In this document: in pieces, positions 15,947-61,925 of the stretch | How positions within the stretch are numbered: position 1 is the first letter of the stretch | How the letters are laid out: each line of letters begins with the position of its first letter | Assembly: GCA_964187785.1 (NCBI GenBank) | Contig: OZ076409.1 | Span: forward strand, 40,426,001 to 40,490,000 | Reading direction: 5' to 3' | Length of the DNA stretch: 64,000 bases | Source: Amphiscolops sp. MND2022 | Lineage: Eukaryota | The notes under the pieces: model-generated | Databases searched by the model: none | What the model saw: only the letters and a program-made list of their open reading frames with translations | What the model was told of the DNA's origin: nothing | Program-made: the position numbers and the translations under genes

Positions 15947-16129
15947 GTATGTTTTTGAATTGTTTGTACCTCGGCCAGCCAATTCGATCCAACTTTTGGG
16001 TTTTTCAGGTACTGTAAAAGAATACTTGACACTTTGAAGTCCTTCTCTAGTCGAACCTGCCGGAGAGTTCTCCATGTTGCATCCATGCATGCATTCTAAG
16101 TTTTTGATAAACATATAAAATTCTGATAG

Positions 16130-31789: not shown

Positions 31790-31963
31790 ATTTTCACTTC
31801 CCGGTACCACCTCTTCATAGAAGCTACCGGACAATAGTTGCAGTCACGTTGTCAATTGATTATGAGCTTGAAGCTGCAGCTTCAAGCTCATAATCAATTG
31901 ACAACGTGACTGCAACTATTGTCCGGTAGCTTCTATGAAGAGGTGGTATCGGGAAGTGAAAAT
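31790..31963. repeat. 174-bp spacer-free palindrome
   Basis: Mirror axis 31876/31877 (GCTG|CAGC), one mismatch seen. Confidence 0.95.
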
Positions 31964-33899: not shown

Positions 33900-35830
33900 C
33901 TTGTTAGAGTTTGCTGTTAGTACAATAGTTTTCGAAGTTGTTGTTTGTTAACTCGGTGCCATTGTCAGACCGTAGTTTATGAGACGTACGGCATTCAGCG
34001 ATATACTCCTTGAATTTTTCTAGTACTTGGTTTTTGTGTCGAATACATTTGACACCAAGATGCGAACAGTATTCGTCAATAAACGTAACAAAGTATCTAG
34101 AACGACCTTTACTCGATGGAGTAATTGGACCAGTAACATTCCTGACAACTCTCTCGTGAGCTTTTGGAGCTTTTATTTATCTCGTTTCGGGACAAGCGTC
34201 TTAGTTATTTTAGCTAGGGAACAAATTACACAATTTTCATCTATTTCGATTAGGTCTTTCAACAGAGAGTGCTTTAAGTCTCCGTAATCCACATGCCCAA
34301 CTCTTTTGTGCCAGAGTTGCGTCTCGTTTGACCCACCACTCAAAACTAGCACAGTGGTTTCGTTGCTTTGGGATCATGCTTATGTAGAAAAGATTTCCTT
34401 TTCTAGTGAGTGATAGAAGCTTTTTCAATTGCTTTGAGGTAAGCTCTTTTTTCATCATGAACAACTTTGTGTTCATTATCCACAAAACTTGATACATAGA
34501 TGAAGTTTGTTCGGTATGCTGGCACAAACAGAGCTTTCCGCATAACTAAAGGCTTAGTTTTTCCGTTTACGTCTTTAGCTAAGATTTCAACTTTTTCTAT
34601 TCCTAAGATCTTCGTATCGATTGCTTTCATGTTCTTGGACCAATTCTTGGTCACAATAGCATGGTCAGTACTTCCTGAGTCTACCACTAAATCTTTAGCT
34701 GTTGCCTCACTTGAGTCTCCTGACGTAAGACTTGACGCTAAGCTTCCGGGCTTAGCTCCTTCGAACTTGTTAGTTTTTTTGATACATGCATTTTCAAAAA
34801 GGGCTTTTCATTTTGCAGTATGTACACTCAGCTTAGTCCTCATGATAACAATCTGTTTTTAAGTGCCCTTTTCATGTCACAGCAATAGCATGTCTGTCCT
34901 GAGTTCGACTTAGGCACAGTGTTATATTTGCAAAAGGACTTGGGTTTGGTCTTGATTTTCTTGGACACATCGTCACGTGTGAACCATCGTCAACTACTTT
35001 CTCCCGGTGATGGCGACTTTCATCATAGTTGGTGAGCTTTGTCCTCAGTTCCACAAAACTGCCAGCAGTATTGAAACTTTCCTGCGCCACGAAATGCTCA
35101 TAGCGTTCAGGAAGGCTGTTGAGAACCATCGCGTTGAGTAGTGGCTCTATCAAGTGTTCCCCAGCTTGTCCGATGCGTGTTGACAACTCTTGGACCGGGA
35201 TGAAGTTTTAGGGTAGTGCTTCATCCTCCTTCAGTGTTAGGCGGGCCAGTTGTCTCATCACACTAACGACTGTCACCGTTTCGTTGCTTCGGAACCTCTC
35301 TTGGAGTAGCCCCCATGCCTTGTGACAATCACTGAGTCCTTTGTTGTTAGCACAGTCAAGCCTGATCAACATCAGGCTGGTTGTACCGAGAACCATTGCA
35401 AGGTAGCACCAGAATGTGTTCTTGCGTTTCCCGATGTTATCGAGCGCCCGTCTGTATTGTGCTTTTGCTGCTTCGTGAGCAGCGCGTTGCTCGTCAGTTG
35501 GATCACTACCAACCCTTGTTGGACCGGTTGGTGATGGCTCATCTCCAGTGAGAGTTCCGAAGGACCTTTCGTTTGAGAAAAGTCTTAAAACCTAGTGCTC
35601 CAGATCGGGTAGTCGTCGGTCATGCCCGGGAATCAGAGCCAATTGAGATGTTGTTGCTCCCCATTTAGTTTGCGCGTTTTTGGGAAAGTTTGAAAATTTT
35701 GGAATCCTTTCTCTGGAACTGGCTACTTTGGGGCCATAATCTGTTGAAGATCGGTACAAAACCACTTCAGTCCTTCAGCAGTTTATGTTATACGGCGACT
35801 GTAGAGAGTCAATCAGTTCGTGAGATATTT
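33900..35830 (-). mobile_element. Decayed Ty1/Copia element: LTR end, PBS, gag, protease, integrase fragments
   Basis: - strand ...TCTTCAACA|GATTATGGCCCC resembles copia PBS GGTTATGGGCCC (~35741-35730); gag LLNAMVLNSLPERYEHFV; protease VDSGSTDH; LWHKRVGH pre-integrase; many frameshifts; ends approximate. Confidence 0.85.
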
Positions 35831-39663: not shown

Positions 39664-39779
39664 TAAAATCCAGTAAAGAAGATTTCTCCAAATTTATGAA
39701 TCCTGACAAGATTTTCAGGTGCACCTGAAAATCTTGTCAGGATTCATAAATTTGGAGAAATCTTCTTTACTGGATTTTA
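39664..39779. repeat. 116-bp perfect spacer-free palindrome
   Basis: Mirror axis 39721/39722 (GGTG|CACC), no mismatch seen. Confidence 0.95.
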
Positions 39780-42700
39780 TTCTACAACTTTCGCTGAAGA
39801 AATTTCGGTTGGAGAGAAGAGTACTTATCCGAAGTAAATAAAAGTGACCTAAACAAGCTACCCAGATCAAAGATCCAGTTTCAAAAGATGCAAACACTAA
39901 GAGATTTGCAGATCAGAAAAAGCAGATTTAGGTTCAAAAGTTGTCCTAAAAGGTTTCCCAGGGGCCTCAATTTGCTTGAATTGCATTACTCAAAGGGAAT
40001 CCGAACAAGTGTCCATCCGCCCTGCAACCATTGTGATTCGGAGCTTCTGAGCACTTTATATAAATAGTCTTCGATTTTCATGTATTTCCGAGTTGAATAT
40101 TTTTAACTGATTCGAGAGAACCGGATATGTCATTGACTTTTCCAGAATTTTGACTTTTTTGAAGTGGAGCTATTTCTCAGCAAAAGAAAGTGCAAAATGA
40201 TCTTTGTCAGGTAATTTATTTGATGCGCCACTGCGTATTTAGCGGGGCACTTATGAAAACGCAAAGAGGACTTCTCATTAAATTGCACAGCTAAAAAATT
40301 GAAGACGTACATAATTTTACCAATAAAAGCCAAAAAGACCGGGGTGTTAGTTTTAGTCATTCACTGTTGTTCTTCAGCTCGCAAAAAATGATCTCCTCAT
40401 GCACAAAAGAGGGTAAATATACTATACATTACCATCCCTTTCTATATTGAAAAGTATCCTCAAGTCTTGAGAATTCCCAATAAAGCATCTCAATCCTGTT
40501 CATAAGTAGAGTTGCATAGTAGCAATGACGATCATTTGTGTACATACATAAACTTGCATGTGCTTCCATATAGAATGCTTGTAGTTCCTCTACATTCCAT
40601 AAACTTGCTTGGTCTATAAGATATCAAATTATTAGTATGTCTTAAGAGTTAACTAAGCCTGAATGAACACTGAAAAAAATTACATGGCATTTTTTCTTTC
40701 ACCAAAAAAAACGCATATTGCACAGAAAAATCAGTTCGGATTTGCATTATTCGTAAACACGGCACTGAAAAACGCAGTGTTTCCACTAGTGATTTGTAAT
40801 AGAGCGCTCATCGCGTAACAACAGAGGTGGAAAGTTTGGTGGTTTTGTAGTTGAAACAATTCGCTATTTTTTTCTCTCTGACGGGTGAAAGCTTAATTTC
40901 CCAAAAGCTGCCAATCTGGCTTGAATTTGGTCGTCAAAGTTGTTCGGTACTTCTTTCCAAACAATCAAAAGTGTGAAAACTGAAAAAATCAGTGTTCCAT
41001 CACAAGGTGTCCCTAAAAACAGCCCATACTCTCTCATTGTGCGTGAAAAAAGAATGCGGGTTTTTATTTAACCACACTTGAAATGATGCGCTTTGGGTCC
41101 GATCGCCAACTAGGTGAACCGCAAAACCGGAACGCACAAAACTTTGTTTCTTAAAAATCGTATTATTTGTAAACAACACACTGAAACTCAATTTTCTTCA
41201 GTCAATTAGAAAGAAGCTATCGTGACGTGATTACATCTTGAACTAAGGATGGTTCGAACCATCAGGCACAAAGTCTACGCATCTTGACCAATGTTTTCGT
41301 TCTCATTTTCAACGCGTGAAAGGTCTTTCGCTTCTAAAAAAAAAGTACTAGTTTGAATGATTGCTAGCATGCAGTACTGCGATTAAGAAAATTTCTTCCA
41401 GGCGATTTTGGGCGCGATTTCTCGAAATCGATTAAAAATTCTGAAAAACGTCAGAAATGAAAGTTTCTTAGAATTTCATCTAGTTTACATTAGTATTTCT
41501 TCGAAAATTTCCGATATAAAAATTGAGAAAGTTACAAATAGCTGATTTTGTGCAAAATTGAGACTTTTTGCCGTTTTTCCAATTTTTGACCGGTTTATTC
41601 ACAGTTTTTTGGCAAATTTTATGCTCAACTATTTCCCATAAATCTACTGAATCTATAGTTATACTTTGATTTTTAAAAATGATCAACCGTTTTCGAAACA
41701 TCATGCTCGAAAGGTAAAATTTCGTCGATTTACATGTTTTAAGATACGAAATTAACGTTTCGCGGAGGGATAGTGCGATTGTTTTTTCATTTAGAATGTT
41801 TTTGAAACAAAAAAATTTATCAGTAAACTGTCGACAATCTGCAGAATCCGATGAATTTAATTTTTAAGAAAAAAATTCAATAACCTGCCCACAACTGCGA
41901 AAATAACAAAGGCGTTCTTTTTGCGGCTGAGATTTCACTTTATGCGCCAATGAAAATTGAAAGTTAGAGCGAATAAGCAAATTAAATTGGTTGATTACGA
42001 CGCTCAGCGCATAGGGGGATGATTTCTCAATCACAGTTAATTGAACAGTCATAATGAAATATTGAATACTTCTTGCAACTTATATTGACAACTTGTGGAA
42101 CTTCTCTTTGTATTTTTCAAGCTCGTATTCGCGAAAGTTTTTCACGAAATCTAGAAAACTATGTAGAAAATTTGTCAAATTAAATTGCGGTTTTTACGAT
42201 TGCAAAAATCACAGAAAATTTATCTACTTTGATAGCGACATGATTGCTTTGTTTTTGGGAACCAATATAACATAGACGGCAAAATTTAGCAGTTTCAAGT
42301 TTTCAGGTTCAGGTTGCGTAATGAAGTTTCAATAAAGTAGGACACTTTTGCGATTAAAATGCTCCAGTGTTTTATAAAATCGTGATAAAAGTGCTTGACA
42401 ACCTACAAAGCTTGTTCAAAAAATCAATGTTGATGAAACTGAAAATCGTTGTCCCCTTCAAATTTCAGTTTTACTGTTTATCAGAACCTTGAAAATAAAA
42501 CTCAGATCTCTCTTAATTTTTGCTATCATTTGAAGAAACTCTCAAAAGTTAAGAAAACACATATCTTGACCATGGCTCAAGAATACCTGAAACTCAAAAT
42601 TGATCTGTTCAAACTCCACGGTTTAGTTTTTCGTCAAACGTTGAATGCTTGAATGGAGCAGAGAGGCATTGTGTTTGGAGTTCACTCAAAGTACTTCCAA

Positions 42701-43672
42701 CTGGAGGTCGGGTTCTGTTAAAACCCACCGATTTCCAAGTAACGGCATGTCGCTTACGCATTTAGGGACTGATTGAACTACAGTAGGCTACCGAAAGTTC
42801 AACGACAACAAAGTTTTTTTTCGATCAAGGCGGTAAACTCGAGACGCATTGTTTGAAGTTCTTCCCTCAAAACAATCGAACAAATCGATCAAATTAAAAC
42901 AGACAATTTATGGTAAAACATTTTTAGGAAATTCATTTTGCCACAAGGCGATGCTCTTTACAGAGCCCATGTTTACCGAAAAAAAGCTACAACGTTGAAT
43001 TGCTTCCAAACATCGAGTGGCACCCAGTATTTTTCAATTTAGCGGAAATTTTTGAAAATGTTAGTTTTGAAGTCGTCTAATTATATCGGCTCGGTCTGAC
43101 AACCTTGCCAGAACCAACTTACACGCCTTGGTTCAGTGATAAAAGCCGTTGAGAGATTATTCAAGCGTAATTTACAGGGGATTATTTGCAACGACTAAAA
43201 TTTTGATGATCTAAACTGTCAATTTATAGTTTTGAGTTTTCGAGTGTTTGGAGTTAAAAATTCACTTTTGGAAATGTTTCTGTAATGGTATGTCAGAGGT
43301 AAAATAGAGGACGCTAGGCGTATCTGTAGTGCTATGTTTCCGAGTCCATTTGAATAGAAAAATCAAGAAACATTTTTCAGATAGTGGTCAAAAGTGTGTG
43401 AAACTGCAAGAAAAGGAACATTGAACTCAGGGTTATTAAAATAGGGAGGGTATCCATGGGGAGGCCTGGATAAAGAAATGCTTGAAAAACAAACATCGAA
43501 TCATGGATATCTACAAAACTTGTTTTTACAACTGAAATATCGAGAACTATATGAAACTTTCGGTATGCGTAAAATTTTGGTATCCTAGTGTATAAGTATG
43601 AAGTAAAATTATTCAATTATATCTGCTTTTTTGTCCCAAATAATTAGATTCGGAACAGCAATCCCTATCTCA

Positions 43673-44223
43673 CCCTAGTCGAGATTGCTTTCACTTTTTA
43701 CATGCTGAATGGAAACATGCAGTCTATTTTTTTTAAAAAAAAACAGAAAAATCCCGGAAGCCTGCATGGAAACATTTTGTAGGATAACAATGCAGCCTCC
43801 ACTATTTCAATTAAAACTGATAACATTTCCACTTCTTCACTGCCGCGATCACTTTGTTTTGACGCGTAAGTTTCTCAAGAAAGTACCTTATGCAATCACC
43901 TTTAGTCAAGTAGCACGCTGAATATGACGCTACTTTGAAACTTACATTGTGACTAAAGTTTATTCGCATTAAATTCGCGGTAAACTTGATGAAGGTCTCA
44001 GCTGCTTTCAAAATTAGAACAGCGTCTTAATGAAACCTGCAAAACTTTGCGGCCCAGATTTTACGCCAAATATACGATGCATCTTATAGGCAGCTTGATA
44101 AAATTAAATCAAATCAGTGAAGTTTTATTGCATGGGCGTTTCTTTGAGAATTTTATAAAATCATGTAAAGTTAGCTTGGTAACCTACAAAACATGTAAAA
44201 AGTTCAAGCAGTTCCAACCAGGG
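43673..44223 (-). mobile_element. MITE family X, full copy with CA flanks
   Basis: CA|CCCTAGTCGAGATTGC ... CAAGCAGTTCCAACCAGGG|CA. Confidence 0.85.
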
Positions 44224-44423: not shown

Positions 44424-44972
44424 TATATATCGTAAAGCGACAATTCGTTCCAAGCGACGATTCGTCCCAAGCGACAATTCGTCCCAAATTCCAAAAAGCG
44501 ACAATTCGTGCCAATTATTAAAAGCTTTAATTTGTCCCCAATTTAATTGCCAATAAAGACCTTTGTAATAATGAATCCGGAAAGATTAAAATTAGAGGCA
44601 GGTGCCAACAATTAATTTTAACATTCCACGACTAGTACGTTAAAATGCAACATTTTCTAATTATTCTCACATGGTTAAATGAATCCATTTGTAGTTGGTT
44701 TGATTATTTCTTTCGTTTCAACCTTCAAAAGGTTGGTAATTAGCTGATCAATTAAACAATTGGGGACGAATTGTCGCTTTTTACAAATGGGACGAATTGT
44801 CGCCTTTTCAAAATGGGACGAATTGACGCTTGGGACGAATTGTCGCTTTTTGGAATTTGGGACGAATTGTCGCTTGGGACGAATTGTCGCTTGGGACGAA
44901 TTGTCGCTTGGGACGAATTGTCGCTTGGGACGAATTGTCGCTTGAGACGAATTGTCGCCCAACCGATATATA
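44424..44972. mobile_element. Fold-back-like element with inverted arrays of 17-bp GGGACGAATTGTCGCTT
   Basis: ~4 reverse copies at 44436-44512 and ~10 forward copies at 44763-44958, bounded by TATATATCG...CGATATATA. Confidence 0.75.
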
Positions 44973-46136
44973 CATATCCAGTGTGAGGAAAAAATATGTA
45001 TCACTTTTCTAAACTAGTCGTTTCATCTTTGTCTGCAGGGAAGAGAGTTTGTAGAAGTAAAATGGTGATTTTTTGTTGTTTTCAGTATAAGCTCCCTCGT
45101 GAAAATCAAAATAAAAGGTATTCGATGATTTCGGGACTCCACGACGACATCGATTTGATGTGGATTGAAATCATTTACTGTTTTTTTTTGTTTTTTTTTT
45201 AAAAAACTTTATTTTGAGTTTTTTGACATGTGTAAACATTGAAACTTTGATGAAGATATTTGCACCTCGAGACAGCTGTGTGAGACTATTTTCTATCACA
45301 AACTATAATTTCGTCATCCCGATAACCTTTTGTTACTGCGGAATCCGCTATCGATTGTATAAAATAGGCCAGTCCTCAATTGAGGATAAAACCACTGGTA
45401 AGGATATCGCTATATATAAAAAAGAAATGAAATACATGGAATCACATATATTTCAGCCGAGAGATACACAAAGTTTGACGCGTTGTGAAAATCAAAATGT
45501 TCGTAAGTATTCGGATTTGTGATGAATGTTGACCGGCCTTAGCCTTTATTCTTCTTTTCTGTAACTTTGACACGCTTTAACGTATCACCAATGTCTTCCT
45601 TTCTTTGAACTAACCTAGTTCGCTTCCACTGCTTGCCAGCAAGTTCCCATAACAAATGTATATGTTGTATATATTCTACATGAACACATTTCTTCCACAT
45701 GCACTTCTAATTGTCTATTTTTGGCATAAGAACCTACGGAAAAATAATCGGAAAAATTTACCTACGTAACACATTTGGAGTTGTTAAAGAGGTAAGAAGA
45801 GTGTTTTTAGTGCATGAGACCATTCAAAAACAATTATTCCTATAAGTAGATATAAACATCAGATAAAGAAGATTTTGTCATTCTGGTTAATTCGAAAGAA
45901 TAAAACTGTGAAAATCTTGAAATAACCATAGTTTGATCATTGTATGTCATAAATATGATTCTCATACTATTGTATTCATATAGAAATATGTTTTCCTTAT
46001 TATGATCTTTAAATGGAACACATGTTTTCCATACATGGAACTTTATGGATAATATTCCATAACTTACTTAATTTACACTGATACTAATGAAATTTTCGGC
46101 TACTTACAAGGTACTTTCAAAATTCAAGGTACCAAT

Positions 46137-47643
46137 TGTCCCAGGCGTCCGCCTGTGATGGCAACTTGTATTCTATTTGCCACAACTATCAAAAAGCCCT
46201 ACCCAACACGATCCATTTGAATTGAAACTTTTTAAATAAACTGCATTTGTATCTTAAAAGTCATGTAATTTATTTATTTTGAATATAGAATATCATGTAG
46301 TGATGATTTGATATTATGTAATACCGGCGCTAATTTGTACGTTATTAGTAAATTGGACACCAAGGCGTACAGGTAGAGGAAACGCGTTCAAATGTTTTCT
46401 CGCCTGTCGCCTTGGTCCGCCAGTCCAATTAACTCGCTAGCCAATCACAGTGCAGTACTTTCTTTATTCGGTGCTGTATTATGCTGCTAGATTAAAGGGA
46501 CTGAGTGGCCATATGCCGCCAGTCAATAATATCTCAGTCCACTCATGTCGAGTGGACGCTGAGGCCGTTTTGGAATTAAAGGCGCTTACTGGAAAGTACT
46601 ATGAATTGCGTAATAACCAGTGATTTACTGTCTTATTTAGTAAATTATTAGTCCTTAGAGGATATGTGATCTGCGTTAATTAGTACGCCATCAATGTATT
46701 TGATATAATTCATGTAATTAGAAAGTGTTGAAATACATGCAGTTTGTTGAATTCATACATGTATGTCGTTGCTTGTCCGCAAGGACCTTCAGTCTTCCCG
46801 CCACAATAACTGTCGGGGAAGACCCTTTGATCTATGATGATGTCACTAGTTAACCGTTGCTATATTTAGAACTGTTGCTATTTTTAGAAGCCCTTAAGGC
46901 TATTATTAGAAAATGATGATTAATATTATGCGTGTCATGTAGTTTGTTATGTATATATAGCGGAGACATTTAGTCCCGGGACACAAGAAGTTTGACCTTA
47001 CTACATGCTTGTTACTTGATACTGTGTAATCTCACACTGAATTTGCAAGCCTGAGAACTTAATTTAAATTCTTACCTCTTGCAACAATCTCTTATGCCTT
47101 CTACTAGACGTCAAAAAGCGAAAGCCAGGAAATCTAGGGAAATGGACATGATGTCCGACTTTGAAAACTTAGATGTAATGCTGGGAAATAGCAATAATAA
47201 TCCCATAGAAAGGGAATTAGCTGAAGCTATAGACCAATCATCGGCCCATGGGGACGCTGATACACACACGTACCCGGAGAATGAATATAGAGATTATCAA
47301 CATGAAAATGATGTACTGAGGCAAGATGAAATCAGGCACTCCTTTGAAACTTTCTCGAATGAGTTTAATCTCAGATTATCTCAAGAAATGGATTCTATGA
47401 TGTCAATGATGCATAATCAAATTAATAGGGCTGTCACAACAGCTATAAATGAAAGAGTCATCCCAGAAATCCAGAATATTGCAAACTCGATGTCCTCTAT
47501 GGGACACAGGGACACTGAGGCCAGTTCGTCCCCAAATAGTCAGGAAAACAGGGAAAGCGCACCCGGGCCTAAAATAAAAATTGCAAAGAAAGATTCAAGA
47601 TCTGTAGGTGACTTAAGAGATACCATGAGTCATGGTTCTTACA
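46137..47643 (+). repeat. Element B 5' LTR (1507 bp)
   Basis: Direct repeat offset 13,990 bp, no differences spotted by eye; TGTC...TACA; TATATATAG at ~46952. Confidence 0.97.
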
Positions 47644-48782
47644 TGGTGACAGGAGCTACCGACACCCAACCGCAAATTCCCGAATTTCTGACCGGACGAA
47701 TCCACTCAATCCCGAACCTAGAGAGACAACAATCTACACACAATATCTCTCTGGACACGACCCTGCCAGCCCCGGCCCCAGAGGCTCCTGAACCTCCTCA
47801 GGACCCGTTTAATAGATTAGCCGACGTATTGGTCAATTTGCAAAATAAACCGCAATCTATGACCATCAGACCCGTACAAACAACCCCGATGACATTTGAT
47901 GGGAAAAGTGAGAAATTTGAGCTCTTTGAGGACTTGTTCCATACGATGATCAAAATGCAGCCCACAATGACAGAACAAATGAAAATTAATCACTTTCATT
48001 CTTTGCTACGAAAGGGAGCATTACAGACATTCAGGAACATAAACTCAATCAACCGTCAAACTCTCGAGGACGTACTGGTCATATTCCGGAGGAAATATGT
48101 CAAACCGGAATCACAAGCAACAGCAAAGCATAAATGGCACCGATTAACCTTCGACCCAAGTACAATGAAACTACCAGACTTCTTGGAAGAACTGAACCAA
48201 GGTGCAGAAAAAGCTTTTGGGGAAAATGCTAAAAGCATGATCGACAGCTTGTTATACGCGAAATTGCCCCCAAAACTGAAACGATCTGTCAACATGGCCC
48301 GTCTGGAGAATGGCACGTATGAAGAAATAGTAGCTCATCTTGAAAGAGAACTGGAACTCAATGCATTAGAAGAGTCAGATGATCTACCAATGGCCACTAT
48401 GGCCTCGGCGTCCACGAGCCATAACAACTTATTGTCCAATGGTATCAACACAAATAAAGACGCCCAATGCTCATACTGCAAAGCGACAGGTCATTATTAC
48501 AAAAACTGCCCGAAACTCAAGAAGAAAAAGGAAATGGAGGACAAAGACGGTAAAAAACCTCAACGTCCAACTTACCCACCGTGTGACACATGTGGCAAAA
48601 AGAACCACCCAACCGAAAGATGCTGGCAAGGCGCTGGCGCCCACCTGCGACCCAAAAGGATGCAGACAGAACAAAATGACCGAAATGCTATAGACTCCGA
48701 AGGAAAGCCTAAAAAAGCAAATGACTCAGAAACGGCTACTTCAAGCCAATCCAATACTAAAAAACCTGATTCAAAAAACTAA
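47094..48782 (+). CDS. gag: Element B Gag (562 aa from first ATG), starting inside the LTR
   Basis: Capsid-like TFDGKSEKFELFEDLF region; two CCHC knuckles CSYCKATGHYYKNC and CDTCGKKNHPTERC. Confidence 0.9.
   Translation: MPSTRRQKAKARKSREMDMMSDFENLDVMLGNSNNNPIERELAEAIDQSSAHGDADTHTYPENEYRDYQHENDVLRQDEIRHSFETFSNEFNLRLSQEMDSMMSMMHNQINRAVTTAINERVIPEIQNIANSMSSMGHRDTEASSSPNSQENRESAPGPKIKIAKKDSRSVGDLRDTMSHGSYMVTGATDTQPQIPEFLTGRIHSIPNLERQQSTHNISLDTTLPAPAPEAPEPPQDPFNRLADVLVNLQNKPQSMTIRPVQTTPMTFDGKSEKFELFEDLFHTMIKMQPTMTEQMKINHFHSLLRKGALQTFRNINSINRQTLEDVLVIFRRKYVKPESQATAKHKWHRLTFDPSTMKLPDFLEELNQGAEKAFGENAKSMIDSLLYAKLPPKLKRSVNMARLENGTYEEIVAHLERELELNALEESDDLPMATMASASTSHNNLLSNGINTNKDAQCSYCKATGHYYKNCPKLKKKKEMEDKDGKKPQRPTYPPCDTCGKKNHPTERCWQGAGAHLRPKRMQTEQNDRNAIDSEGKPKKANDSETATSSQSNTKKPDSKN
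47644..47656 (+). promoter_or_regulatory. Primer-binding site of element B
   Basis: TGGTGACAGGAGC directly abutting the LTR-terminal CA; cognate tRNA not established (resembles Leu-type TGGTGTCAGGAG). Confidence 0.8.
48773..48779 (+). promoter_or_regulatory. -1 ribosomal frameshift slippery site A_AAA_AAC (gag-pol)
   Basis: Heptamer immediately before gag TAA; pol is in the -1 frame and is closed by TGA just upstream. Confidence 0.8.
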
Positions 48783-48784
48783 TT

Positions 48785-51700
48785 TTGCCACGACTCCAAA
48801 TACATGACTATATGTCGATTCGACAATACGTCATTTCAGATCCTCCAATAATCAAATACAGCCAAACAATCAAGGATACAAAAGGAATTCCCACTGTTGT
48901 CTGGCAGCAACAAATGGAAAAAGCCTGTATTCGAACTTATAAAATAGTACATAATGATCGCCCAGACCGATTTTACGAAATCGACTATACTAAAGACTTC
49001 GAGACTCAATTCCGTCCCTTACCCTTGATCGAAGATTATCACCCTCAATACCCCGATCCTGATTACGGCAAAGACCCGTATTGGGACGACGAACTCTACG
49101 ACAGACAAAAACTCCAGTTTAGACAAGACGAATATCCACCAACGGACGATGAGGATGATCCCCCGATAGTGGACAACAAACTATCCAGAGCCCTCATTGA
49201 ACTTTGGCAGCCAAATTCCGAAGCACTTTTAGAAGAAATAGAGGAAACTCAAGAACAAGAAGACTTTCAAGGCCCCGACAGCCTTTTAGACGAAACAGCC
49301 TTCTTGCACATTTTAGTGGAAAAACAAGGAGAACCGTCATACGTTCCCCTCTCCACCAACCTTGGCCTCAAAATCAAAAGGCGGATGCTATATTTCCCAA
49401 TGGACTTTGGAGAACTAACATTAGATGGTCTCATAGACACTGGGGCCCACTCCAGTGCGATACCAGAAGCTGACCTTAGGAAAATACGGCTACTTGCACC
49501 CCAATCAATAGTGAAAGAGGGTCCTGCCCCGTCATTCCAAATTATGGTCGCCAATGGAGACCTGGAAACTCCGAAGAGTACAGTAGAACTGAAGTTCGAA
49601 GTAGGGGACATAGAGTTCCACGAAATCTTCATAGTGATGGAAAAATTATCCAGCCCCATAATCGGACTTATGTTCTTACAAAGAAACCACACAGTCCTAG
49701 ATATGCGCCAAGGCATACTTAACTTTCCCTTCTTCTCGATGCAATTGAAAACAGCTGACCATAAGTACTCCAATGTGATGGAACCCATCCTCAACCCTGA
49801 GGATATAACGATTCCCCCAAATGGACGCACAATCATCCCTATCCAATCTCAAATTTATGCAGAAAACGCTGTCACTGGAATCTTACAACCCAGTGACCTT
49901 CTAAATGAAGAAAATGATATAACATTTTGTGCCGCCATAGTCACATTGGACGAAGGGACTACGCGGATCCATGTCAACAACTTCACTGATCAGCCCTTTA
50001 AACTCAAAAAAGGGATGCACATAGCGAATTTCTCTGTGATGACTCCAGAGCAAATGAAGCATGTTAGGCCAATAGACCCAGTGTCCACTTGGCACCTACT
50101 CAATGAAAATGAAGAAGACGCTATTTATTATATCAGCAGTCTTCTCAAAGCCAACAGGAATAATGACCAATACGAACAATACTGGTTTCCAACACCCGAA
50201 AACCCAGGGGACGAAGAGTCCCATACTCCAATACAAAAGAGAATTCTTAGAGAATTACGAAATCTGCAAGAAGCAGAAAAACTCAACCCACAAGACAATG
50301 AAGAATCTCGACAAAAATTCCTCAGTAACTTTGACTGGAAGGACTCAATGCTACAACAGCATGAAATCAAACAGATAGAAGCGCTATTAGTCGAATTTCA
50401 CGACATATTTGCCCGTCATAGGTTTGACATCGGTATGAATGAGGAGTTCACGGTCAAATTGACCCCGAAGGACGACTCTCCTGCCTACAGCCAGAGCTTA
50501 CCAACTCCGGTCAATTTAAAAGAGGACATACTGGTCGAATTAGCGTCACTACACAAATATGGAATTTTAACAACATTACCATTCTCAAAGTACGCTAGCC
50601 CTATCTTTGCACAAAAGAAGCCTAATGGGAAACTACGACTACTGGTAGACCTCAGGAAGATCAACAATCTTATTTCTGATGATTATATCAACAACAACCA
50701 TCCAGTCAGCACCTTAACGGACGCTGCTCAACATATGGCCGGAAAGAAACTTTTCTGTAAACTTGACTGTTCGCAAGCGTACCACTGCCTTCAAATGGCG
50801 GACCAACGGTCTATAGAGATGTTGGCCTTCAACTTTGCCAGCCGAACGTTCGCATATCGAAGATTGGCCCAAGGTCTCAGCAGAGCCTTATCGGCATTCT
50901 CCAGTTTTATGAAAGAATATTTGGACCGTGTCATCAAAGCCGATCAATGTGCCCAATACGTGGACGATATTGGCATTGCAGCCAACGACGCGGAGCATCT
51001 CATTAAAAATCTCAGAGCAACTTTCGAATGCATCCGAGAGGCTTGACTGAAATTAACGATGCATAAATGCCACTTTGGGGCAACGGAGATTGATTTCTTA
51101 GGAAGGACAATCACCCCTGAGGGTGTCAAGCCCCAGAAGGAACGAGTCACACAATTCCTAGAAAAAACGAAATTCCCAAAATCCAAAAAAGCCTTACAAC
51201 GTTACCTCGGATTCCTCAATTATTACAGAAACTACATACCGAGGTTATCAGAAAAATTAGTCCCTTTCTTTCAACTATTAAAGAAAGACGAAAAGGTCTT
51301 AGTCACAACGGAACTGATCGAACAATTCAACGAGATCAATAGAGATTTGGACAGATGCACCCAGCTAGCCCTTAGGCAGCCCTTGCCAAATCGACAGCTA
51401 GTCCTGATGACAGATGCTAGCTTTACAGCAGCCGGATATGCTATACTTACTGAAGATGATCCAAATCAGAAATTTACCTCAACCAAGAAATCCTATGCGC
51501 CTATTGCATATGGTTCAAAAACTTTTACTCCTTCACAACTTAAAATGTCAATTTATGCGAAGGAATTCTTAGCCATCTATTACGCCTTCAAAGAATTTGG
51601 ACATATATTCTGGGGCACACCTAAGCCGGTGATTATCCTCACAGATAACAAATCGGTCACAAGGTTCTTCCAGACTAAAATAATACCGCCGCCATTATGG

Positions 51701-53932
51701 AACGCGTGTGACTTTGTCATTCAGTTCAATTTCACTATAGCGCACATTCCAGGCAAAAACAACACAGCGGCGGACTATCTGTCCCGCATGGAAATGGACC
51801 CCAATGAAAAGTTAGTCCTAAAAATCCGAGCGGACGTTGAAACCCAACCCATTGAAGTCAATGTCCAATCAGCCGGCGTGTCTGAAGAAGAACAAGTGTT
51901 CTTTACCGAAGAAGACAATGAAACAGAAGAACAAATTTGGGAAAGGAAAAGACAATCAAAAGCAGGACTCAAGGTCGACGAGACCGTCATCCAAATAGAT
52001 ACTATATCTGAAAATGTAGTGGATGAAATTACCAATTTCACCCAGAAACTACGTAGAACCAACCAAATACTACTAGAACAATCCAAAGATCCGATTTTGC
52101 TTCATTTAAAAGCAAAAATTCAAAATGAAGAATACTCTGAGGAAATCCTTCAGCAGGACAGCCGGTATAAACATTATTTAAATAATTTAGACCGTATAGT
52201 CCTCAAGGACGAAATAGTGACCCGACAGTATTACGACGAAACGGGACAAATCAAATACCACCAAATCTTACTACCAAAGCACCTGTTGAAAGAACTACTG
52301 CAAGCAATACATGGCACGGCACATCGACATCCTGGCATCTCTAAAATGCTGCAAGAGATCCGCCAAAAATATTACTACCCTGGCATAGCAAAATACGTTA
52401 AAAAATGGGTAGAGGGATGCGAAACGTGCGCTAGAGACAAACGAGTCCCAAATAATACAATTACACCAGAATTGTTGAACTTGCCCGAATGGGACCTTGG
52501 TCCAGAAGATGCCATGCAGATAGACTTATTACCAAACTTACCGACTAGTGGCGGATACCAGACGGTGATGACAGCTATAGATGTATTCTCAAGGTACTTA
52601 TTCGCCTACCCGCTAATTGAGGCAACAGCCACGAATGTAGCCAAGGTGATAATTGATATGATGACGAAACATTCATATTTACCAACAACTCTCATCACAG
52701 ACAAAGGGTCCGCATTTACATCGACCATCATAGCTGAGATAACTCAAATTTTGGGTATAACACTCAAATGTGCTACTACAAAGCACCCGCAAACAATTGG
52801 CAAACTCGAAAGGACGCATGCCTCACTCAAAACAAATTTGAAAATGGCCTCAGGGGAATATCGACGCCAATGGCATAAATATTTACCATTAGCAGTACTC
52901 AACTACAATACCACATACCACTCTAGTATTGGATGCGAACCGAGTAAAGTCTTCCACGGCCGGATTCCCTATAACGTCCTAGACCACAAATTGGGAAATA
53001 ACCCCAATAAAAATTTTTTGCCAACTACAGAATTTGCGGAGGAAGTACAGCAGAGGACACAAATCCTCATAGATCAAACGAAAAAGAACATCATGCAGTC
53101 TTATTTGAAATATAAGGACTATTACGACCGAAAGGCAAAGGCTGCCCCGCTTAAAGAAAAGGACTATTGTTTTGTTCTACAACCTAAAGCAGACAGTCAA
53201 GCATCAAAAATTCCATTCAAGGAATACAGGTGGATTGGACCATTCGTCATTCAAAAAGTACTGTCCAACGACAATTATATTGTCCGTCGTCTAAATACAA
53301 ATAAAACTCAAATACTTCATCGCATTAGACTAAAGAAATTCGTCCCGAATGCCCCTTTAGAGGACAAATACGATGGAGAAAAACTACAACCCGACAACGA
53401 GATAGTAATCCCGCAAGACGATTTGTACACTATCTCATGGGAAGTAGACTTTGAGTACGACTTATTTGAACCGAGGAAGGAAAATTGGACAGACGTGGCC
53501 ACACGCCGGCCGACGGACGCCGAGTCCACTAATACGAACAATGACGTTACCGACGAGGAAAGCACTATCAATGAAAGCTGCAGCGAGCGCACGACAAGAA
53601 ATTACGTCACCGAGAACGAACGCGTCAGCAATGAAAGTTACAATGAGCGTACGACAGAATATGACGTTACCGAGGACGAAATATCCCCGAGAAAGAATAA
53701 TAGCAGTGACGAACCGTCCCCCCCGACTCAAACGTCACAGCGCACTGAGAATGAAAATGACGTCACTAATGATTTACAAGATACGGAAAACGTTTCAAAC
53801 AAAGGCGCAGATATTACCGTGCCCGGAACATCAAAAAATGGAAATTCAAATGAAAATTCGAGCCCTAGAGGAGGGAAATACAATCTTCGACCTAACCCTA
53901 CCCCCAACTTTACTGATGAATACAGATACTAG
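48785..53932 (+). CDS. pol: Element B Pol (PR-RT-RNaseH-IN) with one in-frame TGA at 51044-51046
   Basis: LIDTGAHSS; YVDD; MTDASF; HGTAHRH...CETC; QIDLL/TDKGS/KLERTH; terminal KYNLRPNP; REA*LKL where REAGLKL is expected. Confidence 0.93.
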
Positions 53933-54168
53933 TCAGAAAACTTGAATTACCAGTCCCTTTACTTCACTTCCAGCCCTTGAGGACTTTTATTTTTTACTTG
54001 GGACTACTCTGACTGATTTTTCTTATCGATTACTGGAACTAATTATATACGAAAAGAGAGACTCAGTGGCGAATAATACAAAGCCACACAAACAGGCAAC
54101 AAAGAAGAAATAAATATAAAGCAATTTACAACAAGTACAGTCTAGAAACAAATGTACTCTTTGTACAT

Positions 54169-57100
54169 TTAAGATTTAGAAGTTCCAGGAGCGTTTGCAT
54201 CACTGGACTTTGCGGCTTCAGTCTCACCAGCTGCCCGAAAGCCAACTTTCTTGCCTTTACCAGGGGACAGCTTACGTGGTTTCCCCCCTTCTTTGGACGA
54301 GGAATTGGAAGCGGACTCGATGTCAGGACGGACACTCTTGCTCAGAGCCTTGTAGACCGCAATTAAAGTTTTATGCAAATTAGCCTTGCCGAAACTGTCT
54401 ACGTGTGACCAAGGGTCTCCTGGGACGTTGCCAATACTGAATCGGAACTCCAGATCTTTGAAGGTGCCCAGGGAAGCTTCTGTAGTGCACACAGCCACTG
54501 AATTAGCCACATTAGCTAGGTAAGACTGTGCAGGCATGATGACATCGAAAAGTCTACTTCGGGGATCATTACAGTCAACTCCAGAGAATTTGATGGCTGG
54601 AAGCTCTGGCAACTTAGAAGTCAGGCACAGACAACTCAACTGGAAGATGTAGAACAGATGTTTCCGCAACTTCAATTCAGGCATACCAATCAGAAAGGCT
54701 ACCATGTCGGTGAAGACCTCTGGGGTATCCTTGACCCCAGAGTTGGCTTGGCGGAAGAACTCCACGAAATCGATGTACTCGTCTCGGGCATCAGTCTCTG
54801 GGGAATTCTCTAACCAGCCCCGCAAACTAAAGGATCTGTACAGAGCGGAGAAACAGTATGTGGCTTGCTCAAGCGGCAGACTCAGGAGGGCTACTGGATC
54901 GAAACTGCCCAGACCTCTTACGATACCGGCATTCAAGCTAATGTCGGCCAGGAAGACTTTCAAAAGGTGGACGAGGTAACCTCGGGCCTTGGTGGCGAAA
55001 TCGTCCCGAAGGGCCTCAGCTGCTGTCTCCATCTCTTCAGACGTCAGTTGCTTCTCGCTATAAATTCTCCTGACGCGAGCATGGCATGCGGCATCCAAAT
55101 TTTCTTTGAGCTTCAAGCGACTCAAGAAATCTCGATTAGACAGTTGTCGCCAATTCTGTCCTTGCAAATCTCCCAGCGACTTCCAGTCCAGAATATCAGG
55201 CACGTGTCTGGGAAGTAGTGCTCGACCTGCCAACTTGCGAATGAAAGTATGGAACTCTCGGAAGGTGTAGAAGCCACTATCCCTTCGTTGCGCAAACTGA
55301 CTCTCGAAGCTCTTGGTGTCTGAAAAACAAAACATTACCATCCTGAAGGGTCTTTATGAAACCATTAGACCTAGCATGTCAATCTACTATATCTAGCATG
55401 AGCCTCAAATAGTGGTAAGACAAACTGGGACCATGAGGTCCGTAGACAAGAGAAAAACAATATACTAACAATCGCGGACAATTCGTGCGAAGAACTCCAG
55501 CTTGATGGTGAAGAAATCATCAGCTATGATTTCCCACTCGAGGCTTTGGGGCTTGTTTTTGACCCCCTGGTGGACCTGTGGTGGTGCTATCTTCGTCAGA
55601 TGTTGGTGCACAGACTTCCAGTTCGCAATTAGTTCCGAACATATGGCTGGTACAGCGGCAATCTCCAGGTGATAGGTAGTCATCGCCTACAATCAACATG
55701 CTTATTGGAGGCAATTCAAAACTGGACCTACAGTCTTACGGACAGTGACCTTACCTTGACGAATTCTGGCATCAGGGCGGCCCAGGACTGTCCACCGCAA
55801 CCGTCCAGGAAGGTAATCAGAAACTTCAACTGAGAGAAGAAGCTGATACTGCCAAACACGCTGCCCCATCGTTCATGCATCAGGTCTGGCAGACAAAGAG
55901 CATCAAATCGGAAAGGGTACTCAATCCCTTTTTGGAAGAGGCAAGAACGTTCAAGAAGAGGAATCACCTCTGCAGGACACCCGGACACGCTCACAATCTG
56001 AGGTTGCGTTGATAGGACGGACAAGAGGCGGGAAAGTACCAACAGGAAACCAGCCGCAGGCTCTGAAGCAGTCCGGTATCGTAGCAAACGGACGACATTG
56101 AGGGATTCGCCCTTCCAGAACCGGATCGAGATGAAGCTGTAGGTGCCTCGCATTTCAAACTCCAGAGAGTACTGACCCGTGACACTGACTTGATAGGCGA
56201 TGTCAGCGATGCCGCAGAGGAAGATGTGATGAAAGATCGTCTAAAACAAAATCAACCAGGATGAAAATGAGTTGGGTCTACGTTAGGACTAAAGGACCCT
56301 GAGGCTAGAAACCGCCGATACTTACTGTCAATTTAGAGGAGCCCCAATCGTAAGGAGAGAACAGACTCTGATGATTGGTAACAGTGCCAATCTGTGACCA
56401 TAGCGACTCAAGGACGTTTAGATCTCCACAACGGGGAGCGAAGAGAGCAACCATGGAGATTTGAACACACAGTCTGATCTCCTCCTGCCCAGCGATGGAG
56501 CCAAGGCCAGCCATATGGTCCTCGTAGAAGGGGTTACTGCTGCCAGTTTCGACCAAAGGGACTTGCATAAAGAAAGGCTTCTCTTTCTCAAGCTCCAAGG
56601 GGGTCAACAATTGGCCCTTCTTCCCCCTGACTTCGTACACAGTCCGGCCAGTCACCTTGTCCTTCTTCCTTAGGTGCTCATATCTCCAGCGCTGGTCTTT
56701 GCGAAAATGCGACTCACACTGGAAATGGCGGACAATCTCCCGGGCTCCTTTTGAGAAAATGGAAACATTCGTCTTACATATCTGGCAGTAGAACTTATGT
56801 TTGTTGTGTTCTGGATCAAGGGGGCCAGTGACGAATGTCCGAGTCCACTGAATCCCTTTGAAATACGCTTCTTTCATTACTTTGCCTGTGCGTCCTGGAA
56901 GCCGACGACGTTTGCGGGGTGGACTTGAGGCAGAAGCTTGGTCAGCGGTCAATGTGGCTAAAGGCTCATAGTCAGTTGAGCAGAATCCTGGACTAGGGAC
57001 TTGCTGTGCGGATGAAGGGCCAGGTGTTGATGTCGAACCTTGATCTGGAGGACTAGGGGGAGGATTGATGCTCAGATCCTTGCTGGTTCTCTGAGAGTTG

Positions 57101-58101
57101 ATGACGAACTCATCTTCCGAACTGAGGGCTCCGCTAGTGTACCCCTCAGTCCCAACGTCACTGTCTTCCGCTCCTGATCCAAGGCTGCCGCCCTGCTTAC
57201 GGAAGATCTTGATTCGCTGCTTCCCGGATCCTTGAGGAGTACCTTGGGAGCGAATTCCTGCCCGGATCGCTTCTTCCAGCATGTTCTTCATTTGATGAAG
57301 GGAAGAAGTAATGGTCTCCGTGGAGACGGCACGCAAGATGGAATGGACTTGCCCCTGATTGAAGGCTACAGTCGCATGGCCTACCGGGAGGATACATGGG
57401 TTGGTCTCATTGAAATGCTGATTTATCAGCGTTCTAGCAGAGGCAGATAAAGGTCTGGTTGGACTGAAGAGCTTCGGAGAAGACGTGCCAGGTATCTCAG
57501 CCGAGGTGGATGGCTTGACATTCTCATGGGTCTCAGTCCCAGTGGAGCTTAGCGCATCCAGTGCAATCACGAAGGGTGGTTCCTTGATGGTCTCAGCACC
57601 GGAACTATCGAGTATTTCTTCAGTGTCGCTGGTATCAGTTTGGAAGTAATCCGCCTTGGTGACGGAAAATCCAGCTTCACTGGCAGCATCACCGCCTCGC
57701 TCAATCTCAGCCTCAGGAGACTCCTTGTCTTGCGACCCAGTCGTGACCTGGGGAATTGGTTCCGACTCAGAAGTTTTCTCAGCGATTGACTTTGGTGCAT
57801 TGTCTACAATGGCAGATGTAGTAGGGGGCAAGAAGGAGATGTCAAGTCCAAGGCCCTGGCAACCCAAAGTCTGCAATTGACGGTCAATGTAAGCGGAAAT
57901 GCTTTCATCCGTAGAAGGGCTTGGGGTCGGAGCAGTCTTATCAGGATCATCTCCTGGCGGCACAAGTTGCGTGGACTCAGGGTCAACAGGGATCGAAGTG
58001 GCCTGACTAGTACCAGCTTCTTTGGGGATGGCAACTTCTTCTTCAATCATAGATGTAGTAGCAGTGGCAGGAACAATATCGTTTTGCTCTTCGGACGACA
58101 T
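54169..58101 (-). CDS. Antisense spliced accessory gene of element B, ~1209 aa; exons 58101-56326, 56240-55755, 55686-55470, 55319-54169; BED-like zinc finger, hAT-transposase-like body
   Basis: Three GT-AG introns (85, 68, 150 nt) join four ORF-track ORFs in frame; FYCQICKTNVSIFSKGAREIVRHFQCESH finger; PPRKRRR NLS-like; - strand AATAAA at ~53991-53986. Confidence 0.85.
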
Positions 58102-59378
58102 GTCTAAACAGAAAGGGATAAACTCAAGCGGATAACTTCCTGAGAAAGAGTCCATTACCGCGTTAAAAAATCTTCCGGAAGTAGATTTTTCGAACTCAAG
58201 TGAATACTTGTGTTATGGGACAGGAAGTACGTGAATGAAATGAGAGCCCTGATCAAGCCTCAGATTAATTCAATACTAAAATAGAAACAAAACCTGAAAA
58301 GCTACTGACCTGTTTGAATGCAAAGAAGGATGTCTTGAGAAGGGAGTACTGTGTACAGTTAGACTGGTGGTCACTAAATTGGAAGCTGAGCGATCAGTAG
58401 AGAAGGATGACGAAGCTGGACTGGTGACAATACAGCAGCAGTTGTAGGGAGAAGACAAATTCTTCTTTGATGAAGGACAAGAAAGATTGCTGAAGACGAA
58501 TTAGCAAAAGGGACTCAGTGTCGATTGTCCTAGGATGACCCGAGAAATCCACAGAAGACGTAATTGGAAGAAATTACGAATGAATACTTTAAATGAATAC
58601 TGAGTAAATACGACTAGAAGACTAAAAGACTAGAGATGATTAAATACTGGACGATAATACAAAGAGTAGTTGGAAAGAATTTGAAAATAACGAATTGAAA
58701 AGAGAATTGGCAATGTGACAAGATGTCAAAGTTGGAGTTCGTGGCTATACAGTTTGGTGTCAAATTTGTTATTATTTACAATTTACAGTGTTATGTGGAT
58801 AGAGTCTGCCAGCGATATCTACAATTGCTTATTTATTTCGAAAATGTACCGTTTTACAAATTATTTCATAATTTTCCAAGATTTTATTAATTTCAAGGTC
58901 ATTTTACATTAGTCCTTATATGGATTTACGGCCTTGGGGGGCCATTTTTATTCAGGAAAGATCGTGCTGCATTCCTATTGGCTAATCAAGATTGCTGGGG
59001 GACGGCGTGGCTGACTGCCATAGCTTACCCTCTTGAAACCTTTAAGTGCTCGATGAGTGTTAATAAACACTTGAAGCGGCACTCTTAATATGGAGGTGTT
59101 GACAGAACTGATGTAAGCCAACAAGGCAGTTGTCGGCGTTATCAAAGAAGGCAAGACGGAAAGATGAAAGATATTACCAAGATGGAATTTGTTATTGAAA
59201 ATTTATCCTTCTCGGGAGACGTAAAACCCCGGGAAACCGAGACGAAAACTCCCGCTAGTCGACGGAAGGGAAGACCGCCATTGTTCTACAATCATTCACA
59301 ACAACCAGTTGGCTATTTGAAATAAAACTCAAAAACTTCTCAAAAGAAATCTCTCCGAAAATTGCAAAGAAAATAATT

Positions 59379-60215
59379 ATGGACAGATTCCTATCAAGCC
59401 ATTTCGACTCAGAGTCCCCCGAGTACTTCCCGGAAGACTTTCTGGGTGCAGCCCCGGGAGACGGGATAATTTGTATCTCCAGTGATGACGAAATGGATCG
59501 TGTGAGCAGCGCTTCAGTAGACGACCTGGAATCTCTATCCGACGACGATGAAGTGGCCTTACTGGCGGAATGTGTTGAAAGACAAATGGAAATCCCATTA
59601 GCTTCAGGAAACATTCCGGTGCCCTCCTGTTCAAACCAACAGGGAGAAGATCACTACGGGACCCCCAGGCTCTCATACATCCCTGGGCCAATGTTCGATG
59701 CTGGATACTTTGATCTAGGAATGGGGAGAGGGCCAGTCGCGAGAGACACAAGGCTCAAAAACGATCATCCGATTAATATTTGCAGCCAATTAATTCCAAT
59801 GGTGGACACGCCAATGTCCCCCCCTGCCGTAGATAAATACCCTACAGACGACTGGAGAGCAATGGTAGAGCCCTCTACTAGTAACAAGCAACAATGCCCA
59901 AGTGGAATACACTTTAAAGGCCCTAGCGTCGACAATCCCTACATCACGGGCTGCACAGACTGCCTCATCTGCGGAAAATCTGTGGAACAGATTCAAGATG
60001 AAGCAGTGATTGACTACATGCACAAGACGGCTGTCCGAGGGGAGTCCCCAGAACAATTCAATGCCAGAAGACTAGCGTTCTTAGAAGGAATGAAGGTGGG
60101 CTGCTTCATGCTAATCCCAGGGGGAGTGTCCCAGGCGTCCGCCTGTGATGGCAACTTGTATTCTATTTGCCACAACTATCAAAAAGCCCTACCCAACACG
60201 ATCCATTTGAATTGA
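59379..60215 (+). CDS. Element B second accessory ORF, 278 aa, unknown function; acidic N-terminus and Cys-rich C-terminus; ends inside 3' LTR
   Basis: ATG-initiated intact ORF; IICISSDDE; CTDCLICGK; AATAAA ~10 nt after the stop. Confidence 0.75.
   Translation: MDRFLSSHFDSESPEYFPEDFLGAAPGDGIICISSDDEMDRVSSASVDDLESLSDDDEVALLAECVERQMEIPLASGNIPVPSCSNQQGEDHYGTPRLSYIPGPMFDAGYFDLGMGRGPVARDTRLKNDHPINICSQLIPMVDTPMSPPAVDKYPTDDWRAMVEPSTSNKQQCPSGIHFKGPSVDNPYITGCTDCLICGKSVEQIQDEAVIDYMHKTAVRGESPEQFNARRLAFLEGMKVGCFMLIPGGVSQASACDGNLYSICHNYQKALPNTIHLN
60119..60126 (+). promoter_or_regulatory. Polypurine tract of element B
   Basis: AGGGGGAG immediately before TGTC of the 3' LTR. Confidence 0.8.
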
Positions 60216-61633
60216 AACTTTTTAAATAAACTGCATTTGTATCTTAAAAGTCATGTAATTTATTTATTTTGAATATAGAATATCATGTAGTGATGATTTG
60301 ATATTATGTAATACCGGCGCTAATTTGTACGTTATTAGTAAATTGGACACCAAGGCGTACAGGTAGAGGAAACGCGTTCAAATGTTTTCTCGCCTGTCGC
60401 CTTGGTCCGCCAGTCCAATTAACTCGCTAGCCAATCACAGTGCAGTACTTTCTTTATTCGGTGCTGTATTATGCTGCTAGATTAAAGGGACTGAGTGGCC
60501 ATATGCCGCCAGTCAATAATATCTCAGTCCACTCATGTCGAGTGGACGCTGAGGCCGTTTTGGAATTAAAGGCGCTTACTGGAAAGTACTATGAATTGCG
60601 TAATAACCAGTGATTTACTGTCTTATTTAGTAAATTATTAGTCCTTAGAGGATATGTGATCTGCGTTAATTAGTACGCCATCAATGTATTTGATATAATT
60701 CATGTAATTAGAAAGTGTTGAAATACATGCAGTTTGTTGAATTCATACATGTATGTCGTTGCTTGTCCGCAAGGACCTTCAGTCTTCCCGCCACAATAAC
60801 TGTCGGGGAAGACCCTTTGATCTATGATGATGTCACTAGTTAACCGTTGCTATATTTAGAACTGTTGCTATTTTTAGAAGCCCTTAAGGCTATTATTAGA
60901 AAATGATGATTAATATTATGCGTGTCATGTAGTTTGTTATGTATATATAGCGGAGACATTTAGTCCCGGGACACAAGAAGTTTGACCTTACTACATGCTT
61001 GTTACTTGATACTGTGTAATCTCACACTGAATTTGCAAGCCTGAGAACTTAATTTAAATTCTTACCTCTTGCAACAATCTCTTATGCCTTCTACTAGACG
61101 TCAAAAAGCGAAAGCCAGGAAATCTAGGGAAATGGACATGATGTCCGACTTTGAAAACTTAGATGTAATGCTGGGAAATAGCAATAATAATCCCATAGAA
61201 AGGGAATTAGCTGAAGCTATAGACCAATCATCGGCCCATGGGGACGCTGATACACACACGTACCCGGAGAATGAATATAGAGATTATCAACATGAAAATG
61301 ATGTACTGAGGCAAGATGAAATCAGGCACTCCTTTGAAACTTTCTCGAATGAGTTTAATCTCAGATTATCTCAAGAAATGGATTCTATGATGTCAATGAT
61401 GCATAATCAAATTAATAGGGCTGTCACAACAGCTATAAATGAAAGAGTCATCCCAGAAATCCAGAATATTGCAAACTCGATGTCCTCTATGGGACACAGG
61501 GACACTGAGGCCAGTTCGTCCCCAAATAGTCAGGAAAACAGGGAAAGCGCACCCGGGCCTAAAATAAAAATTGCAAAGAAAGATTCAAGATCTGTAGGTG
61601 ACTTAAGAGATACCATGAGTCATGGTTCTTACA
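60127..61633 (+). repeat. Element B 3' LTR (1507 bp)
   Basis: Copy of 46137-47643, followed by TSD CCAAT. Confidence 0.97.
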
Positions 61634-61925
61634 CCAATTTCTATCAAAACGTAAAAATTTCATCACAATCACCAATTTTTGGTATCTGATTTATTCAAGA
61701 TTGATCTCGAAGGAAGCACAAATCTTCCTGAAAAAAGTATGGCTGTAACTTAAGCCTCAATAAAGACCTAATGCTCCAGAAAAATAATAATTGAACGGTT
61801 TCGTGGCGTTGAACATGAAAGTCATACCTTTTCTATAAAAGTCATATTATTTATGACAACTAAATAAGGAAACATTAGTTGAACTATATGACAGGTCAAC
61901 CCGGGATCGCTGGTGAATGTAAAAA

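Follow-up and report, generated by a model that had tools for sequence, protein, structure and literature searches.

A conserved antisense gene with introns, probably derived from a hAT transposase, in a Ty3/Gypsy retrotransposon of Amphiscolops

Antisense open reading frames (ORFs) between pol and the 3' LTR have been described in plant Ty3/Gypsy elements, including maize Grande (gene23), rice RIRE2 and Retand (TRP28/PF04195) (PMC7264820; PMC11963269). For Grande gene23, an upstream promoter of its own and a product located in the nucleus are described, a regulatory role has been proposed, and the Retand ORFs carry a 'transposase 28' Pfam domain (PMC7264820; PMC11963269). In the available sections of PMC7264820, the plant ORFs are described as mostly of undocumented origin and without similarity to other transposable elements (TEs); where antisense accessory genes of LTR retrotransposons come from, and what they do, are named there as open questions. 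Outside plants, an antisense accessory gene is likewise represented by brtn of the Boty-like Gypsy elements of Botrytis and Sclerotinia (cited in PMC8365987 and PMC7264820).

Genes captured at the env position, together with a dUTPase in pol, are found in the planarian Burro elements and in bdelloid elements, where ORF3 encodes a GDSL esterase or a DEDDy nuclease (PMC5408684; PMC6431247). Transposases can serve as sequence-specific activators, and dead ones as transcription factors; Spm TnpA, which evolved from a transposase, VANDAL VANC and the AtMu1 transposase are TE-encoded sequence-specific activators or anti-silencers, each encoded by a DNA transposon and directed at elements of that class (bioRxiv 10.64898/2026.08.24.746577). 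In the available text of that preprint the words 'retrotransposon' and 'LTR' have 0 occurrences. Among host proteins, the domesticated hAT proteins (ZBED, FAM200/ZBED5, GTF2IRD2-like and CGGBP, the CGGBPs being hAT-derived) combine a BED-like finger, a hAT-derived body, introns and predicted sequence-specific DNA binding (PMC8097297).

The window analysed here is a 64,000-nucleotide stretch of the Amphiscolops sp. MND2022 genome (contig OZ076409.1). It contains an LTR element of 15,497 bp (46137-61633) that harbours an antisense gene and has the following parts.

46132..46136, + strand: target-site duplication, 5 bp, left copy (right copy 61634-61638), read from the sequence
46137..47643, + strand: 5' LTR, 1507 bp, TG...CA, 100% identical to 60127-61633
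47094..48782, + strand: gag ORF with a DUF1759-like region and zinc knuckles (weak Pfam matches)
47644..47660, + strand: PBS-like site with first letters TGG, read from the sequence; the gag ORF reads across it
48770..53932, + strand: pol, with PR, dUTPase-like, RT, RNase H and IN domains (Pfam)
59379..60215, + strand: ORF4, 278 aa, oriented divergently to the antisense gene and entering the 3' LTR by 89 nt; contains Cys motifs
60119..60126, + strand: polypurine tract, a purine run ahead of the 3' LTR
60127..61633, + strand: 3' LTR, 1507 bp

The LTRs, the target-site duplication and the PR-RT-RH-IN order of the pol domains in Pfam, which is the Gypsy order, identify this as a Ty3/Gypsy LTR retrotransposon. 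The 100% identity of the LTRs, which have TG...CA ends and a 5-bp duplication on either side, marks the insertion as very recent; in the window copy pol is broken by an in-frame stop at 51044-51046. The gag ATG (47094) lies inside the 5' LTR, so that the first 183 gag codons are LTR sequence, and this layout recurs in three other loci, L040, L041 and L042 (39-83% identity). The gag/LTR overlap of Ty1 is short, and the 183 codons here are far longer. The LTR parts that hold the gag start are 47094-47643 and 61084-61633, and the ORF continues through the PBS. At the gag/pol overlap (48770-48782) pol lies in the -1 frame with an A-rich, slippery-like site, which is kept in L043.

Between pol and ORF4, on the opposite strand, lies the antisense gene.

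53986..53991, - strand: poly(A) signal AATAAA of the antisense gene, read from the sequence
54169..55319, - strand: exon 4, a helical region and variable basic tail, tentatively a hAT insertion plus C-terminal part
55320..55469, - strand: intron 3, phase 1, GT..AG in 10 of 10 loci
55470..55686, - strand: exon 3, split by an extra intron in 7 of 9 diverged loci
55687..55754, - strand: intron 2, phase 0, GT..AG in 10 of 10 loci
55755..56240, - strand: exon 2, RNase H-fold core in which Glu and Ser replace Asp where the catalytic residues are inferred to lie
56241..56325, - strand: intron 1, phase 0, lacking in the homolog P0018
56326..58155, - strand: coding part of exon 1 from the likely start ATG 58155 (58101 in the original prediction)
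56707..56787, - strand: BED-like C2H2 finger, CX2CX16HX5H, with its four ligands kept at 91-97% among 36 aligned sequences
56902..56922, - strand: basic NLS-like patch directly ahead of the finger, with a basic cluster in 20 of 27 homologs
57247..57471, - strand: conserved block, aa 211-285 counted from 58101, within the variable N-terminal half (homolog matching)
58156..58800, no strand assigned: conserved upstream block, candidate divergent promoter (conservation)

The original prediction joined four minus-strand ORFs into one frame through three canonical introns, and computing the join (58101-56326, 56240-55755, 55686-55470 and 55319-54169) reproduces it: 3630 nt and 1209 codons, hence 1209 aa, with a single terminal stop. 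The introns measure 85, 68 and 150 nt, all have GT..AG ends, have phases 0, 0 and 1, and contain stops in all three frames. The AATAAA noted after the stop is likewise present (53991-53986), about 180 nt beyond the antisense stop and about 55 nt from the pol stop, with the two genes arranged tail-to-tail. The start proposed at ATG 58101, with a 5'UTR acceptor just before it, is probably wrong. An in-frame ATG at 58155 opens a conserved 18-codon motif (MD[SF][FY]xGS...) that forms the N-terminus of 10 of the 12 database homologs of exon 1 with at least 580 aa, and the Met at 58101 is not conserved in other families. From ATG 58155 the protein is probably 1227 aa long, and the proposed acceptor therefore falls within coding sequence, where the AG/G at the end of the motif may also serve as an alternative acceptor. 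Further upstream, a donor-like site at 58304-58316 (- strand) is shared by 29 of 30 close copies and has a similar counterpart in L040-L042; an intron in the 5'UTR may begin there.

The gene belongs to the antisense additional ORF (aORF-3R) class. Its position, orientation, conservation and presence in most copies resemble those of the plant antisense ORFs (PMC7264820; PMC11963269), from which it differs in that a probable class II transposase origin is detectable and in having about 1200 aa and 3-4 conserved introns. PF04195, the domain of Retand TRP28, has no match in Pfam scans of the antisense protein.

Homologs are numerous, and those of the finger region form 469 clusters at 50% identity; the 10 that were looked up by ENA source are unnamed proteins. 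Of 59 homologs that reach the end of exon 1, 48 run on with Val, that is, with a GTN donor. In P0018, which lacks intron 1, the two flanking exons are continuous exactly where the join was predicted, which provides an independent check of it. P0021, P0022 and P0140 find no match in this genome at cut-offs of 1e-200, 1e-200 and 1e-60, which suggests that they come from other genomes. Scans of JGI metagenomes and IMG/VR revealed no relative.

The exon-intron structure is shared by nine diverged loci, which were selected from hit lists and are not random picks. Their exons are 29-54% identical to the window in eight cases, and those of L032 reach 79-89%. At the homologous sites, all 27 introns have GT..AG ends with the position and phase unchanged (65-165 nt), far beyond the chance expectation of about 0.004 per intron. 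An additional intron within exon 3 is found in seven of the nine, and is absent from the window/L032 lineage and from L031, which on the trees implies two separate losses. Such exact losses fit recombination with cDNA of the spliced antisense mRNA. The gene stands tail-to-tail with pol on the opposite strand in all 11 loci, the nine plus two more that were left out of the intron counts (one is deleted over the intron-1 acceptor, the other has an ambiguous exon-3 acceptor).

A search of the 1.07 Gb genome returned at least 37 full-length matches at the DNA level, at least 109 to exon 4 and at least 150 to the finger; these are lower bounds, as scoring in the protein searches was confined to the best among more than 7,000 candidates. 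Of the 37 full-length matches, the 30 best (the window and 29 others), a sample biased to close copies, were analysed for splice-site conservation and selection, the comparison of sister copies that the original prediction had called for. The frame is intact in 26 of the 29, one of these 26 having a mutated acceptor, and GT..AG is kept in 86 of 87 introns. Shared variants comprise 74 synonymous and 25 non-synonymous changes (pN/pS 0.10, binomial p 8e-27); pN/pS is 0.35 for singletons and 1.4 and 2.7 in the shifted frames. Only the last 59 codons appear unconstrained. The antisense gene is thus real, old and under selection, and the view of it as a maintained cargo gene that defines a large Gypsy lineage is borne out by purifying selection, conserved intron positions, constant linkage to pol and more than 100 close copies. 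An alternative is that the antisense RNA itself is the functional product, in dsRNA or small-RNA regulation, with the protein incidental; roles for antisense RNA are considered in PMC7264820 (available sections). Here, synonymous sites are saturated yet amino acids are conserved, and therefore selection acts on the protein; moreover, the predicted transcript would stop before the pol coding sequence. An RNA function is accordingly given almost no credence.

Exon 1 encodes, in order, the conserved N-terminal motif, a long acidic disordered region, the conserved block, the basic patch and the zinc finger. The block at aa 211-285 is matched in 20 of 24 long homologs, compared with 2-3 of 24 for the flanking segments. 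The finger itself has weak Pfam matches to C2H2 and Spin-doc and none to zf-BED, and zf-BED clusters are found among its Atlas neighbours at 0.86-0.87. Exon 2 has an RNase H-like fold, for which Hermes ties with ISCth4 and integrases. Exon 4 is predicted to be helical, with a poor single-sequence fold (pLDDT 48) that left the structure search uninformative; it has no Pfam match, PF05699 included, and no PDB sequence match, it is not found among longer proteins, and the Atlas offered nothing usable. PDB sequence searches with profiles of exons 1, 2 and 4 yielded nothing credible, Pfam scans of the alignment members yielded no hAT model, and comparison of the exon-1 and exon-4 profiles showed no internal repeat. 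An env gene had also been considered for this position and is ruled out by the antisense orientation and by the lack of a hydrophobic N-terminus or signal peptide; the highest 19-residue hydropathy, a borderline 1.67, is in exon 4.

In hAT transposases the finger is followed by an RNase H core and, after that, by a long helical stretch. The antisense protein follows this order and its named Atlas neighbours are all hAT-type, from which we infer that it is likely to derive from a hAT transposase. Both points weigh against a different RNase H-fold origin (Mutator-like, P/Kolobok-type or a domesticated host ZBED-like gene) for what would still be a real accessory gene, as does the absence of a single-copy host version among the 11 sampled loci. 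Such an origin draws on the level scores of Hermes, ISCth4 and the integrases, and on the introns, which may indicate capture of an already domesticated host gene. Together with the variant in which the protein acts on the host, it is considered unlikely.

Across 122 sequences, Glu occupies strand 1 and Ser-Gly follows strand 4, with no Asp at the positions that we take to be catalytic from hAT motifs, and in exon 4 no acidic residue is conserved beyond the Cys-rich motif (Glu 59%). Given a hAT origin, the DDE triad is very probably lost, and catalysis with it. The missing Asp residues speak against an active transposase. A nested hAT transposon riding passively is suggested by the transposase-like anatomy, and nested insertions are common; nevertheless, no convincing pair of inverted repeats surrounds the gene, selection on it is strongly purifying, it lies beside pol in 11 of 11 loci, and the cargo and integrase trees agree on three main groups. 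hAT transposons have terminal inverted repeats and an 8-bp target duplication; the search for such repeats covered 53800-60200, where the best pairs are short and 70-86% complementary, and short repeats may hide among such chance pairs. Nested insertion, passive or active, is thus largely refuted and highly improbable.

The block upstream of the gene contains a perfect 10-bp palindrome (58172-58181), found in 30 of 30 close copies and also in L040, L041 and L042; it is the part that stays constant and the best candidate for a promoter or binding site. A separate transcript of the antisense gene, as put forward in the original prediction, is indirectly supported by this block with its palindrome and by the precise intron losses. 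ORF4, beyond it, has no Pfam match and is 71% identical in L040 and 30-32% identical in L041 and L042. Two types of its 5' half segregate among close copies: of 29 whose cargo is nearly identical, 17 have the other type.

Cargo and integrase trees have the three main groups in common, with cargo branches about ten times longer and amino-acid divergence about ten times faster in the cargo. Synonymous distances do not agree between the two: dS is 0.14 for integrase and 1.8-1.9 for cargo between the window and L032, 0.03 for integrase with saturated cargo between L038 and L039, and reversed between L034 and L035 (integrase 0.49, cargo 0.06-0.14). The window and a family-B element are 97% identical from the PBS to the pol end. 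For the bulk of the cargo their identity is 69-79%, for its 5' end together with the upstream block 92-94%, for ORF4 75% and for the LTR 66-82%. L038/L039 show a similar mosaic pattern with L041/L042. These data demonstrate mosaic exchange between cargo and gag-pol. In retroviral replication, one template switch at the pol/cargo border yields a tract from the PBS to the pol end, and linkage of cargo and LTR therefore needs no selection. A strict lock-and-key relation of cargo and LTR is unnecessary given such a switch, and is weakened by the two types of the ORF4 5' half.

The mosaic also bears on whether the dead transposase acts at integration or nuclear entry, tethering the cDNA or intasome to chromatin or guiding target choice. 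Transposase scaffolds bind DNA ends and multimerise, and the basic patch is conserved. One proposal for antisense accessory proteins is that they import the pre-integration complex into the nucleus (PMC7264820, available sections). However, the families compared in L038/L039 and window/L032 have almost the same integrase although their cargo is synonymously saturated. This shows no sign that cargo and integrase evolved as a pair, and such a role is rather improbable. The roughly tenfold faster cargo would suit an action on the host, as in host-interacting accessory proteins (PMC13547354, as far as its available text goes).

We favour a model in which a hAT-type transposase gene was captured by a Gypsy ancestor and came to lie behind pol, on the opposite strand. 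This gene would have lost its catalytic residues and transposon ends and retained the BED-like finger, basic patch and RNase H scaffold. An internal promoter between it and ORF4 would drive a spliced antisense mRNA that stops just short of pol, and the introns would outlast each round of reverse transcription because they are oriented away from the genomic RNA. The product of about 1227 aa is most likely nuclear; its scaffold would be that of a dead transposase, and its finger would contact DNA. The element would keep the protein as an aid to its own spread; most plausibly the protein binds the element and activates it or shields it from silencing, and a single template switch at the pol/cargo border would swap cargo against gag-pol. 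Expression, nuclear DNA binding and a regulatory role, taken together, appear moderately probable. The whole account, a captured and disarmed hAT transposase kept as a DNA-binding regulator of the element, is held with slightly better than even confidence. The broadest version, in which a retrotransposon domesticated a class II (hAT) transposase as a spliced, sequence-specific trans-regulator or anti-silencing factor, present in many families and exchanged as a cassette against gag-pol, is tentative and somewhat doubtful.

The gene appears to add to the antisense accessory genes, as a DNA transposase tamed by a retrotransposon, and so offers a traceable origin for a kind of gene whose origin has been an open question. 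Domesticated hAT proteins are single-locus host genes, whereas this gene is retrotransposon-borne, with more than 100 copies in many families. The bdelloid ORF3s differ in being enzymes with intact catalytic residues and spliced messages (PMC5408684; PMC6431247), and the cargo in the available text of these two sources and of PMC13547354, PMC13524379 and PMC5718144 is different from the gene described here. The word 'transposase' does not occur in the available text of PMC5408684, nor does 'antisense' in that of PMC6431247. The literature searched yielded no LTR element whose antisense gene derives from hAT, with Repbase, Dfam, subscription journals and preprint supplements outside its scope. 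Sequence-specific DNA binding is what one would expect of a dead transposase that bears a zinc finger, and if this is true, the path from transposase to transcription factor would extend beyond host genes and DNA transposons and include retrotransposons. The repeated precise losses of introns would be a natural record of antisense mRNA that was reverse-transcribed and recombined into the element. For annotation, a multi-exon gene of 1.2k aa with more than 100 close copies in many families will mimic host genes.

Elsewhere in the window, 255-6712 (+ strand) holds a different Gypsy pol with an extension of about 750 aa past integrase; the extension found no match in Pfam and PDB sequence searches, and its end looks macro-domain-like by eye. 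A weak Pol beta-barrel (protease-like) match at 34406-34807 (- strand) is probably a decayed retroelement. Copies of one MITE-like family lie in both orientations at 15400-18340, 31320-31520 and 42370-44220, and 44435-44975 holds a small element in which a 17-nt unit forms inverted arrays. Near-perfect, spacerless palindromes are present at 11219-11562, 31790-31963 and 39664-39779, with arms of 172, 87 and 58 nt.
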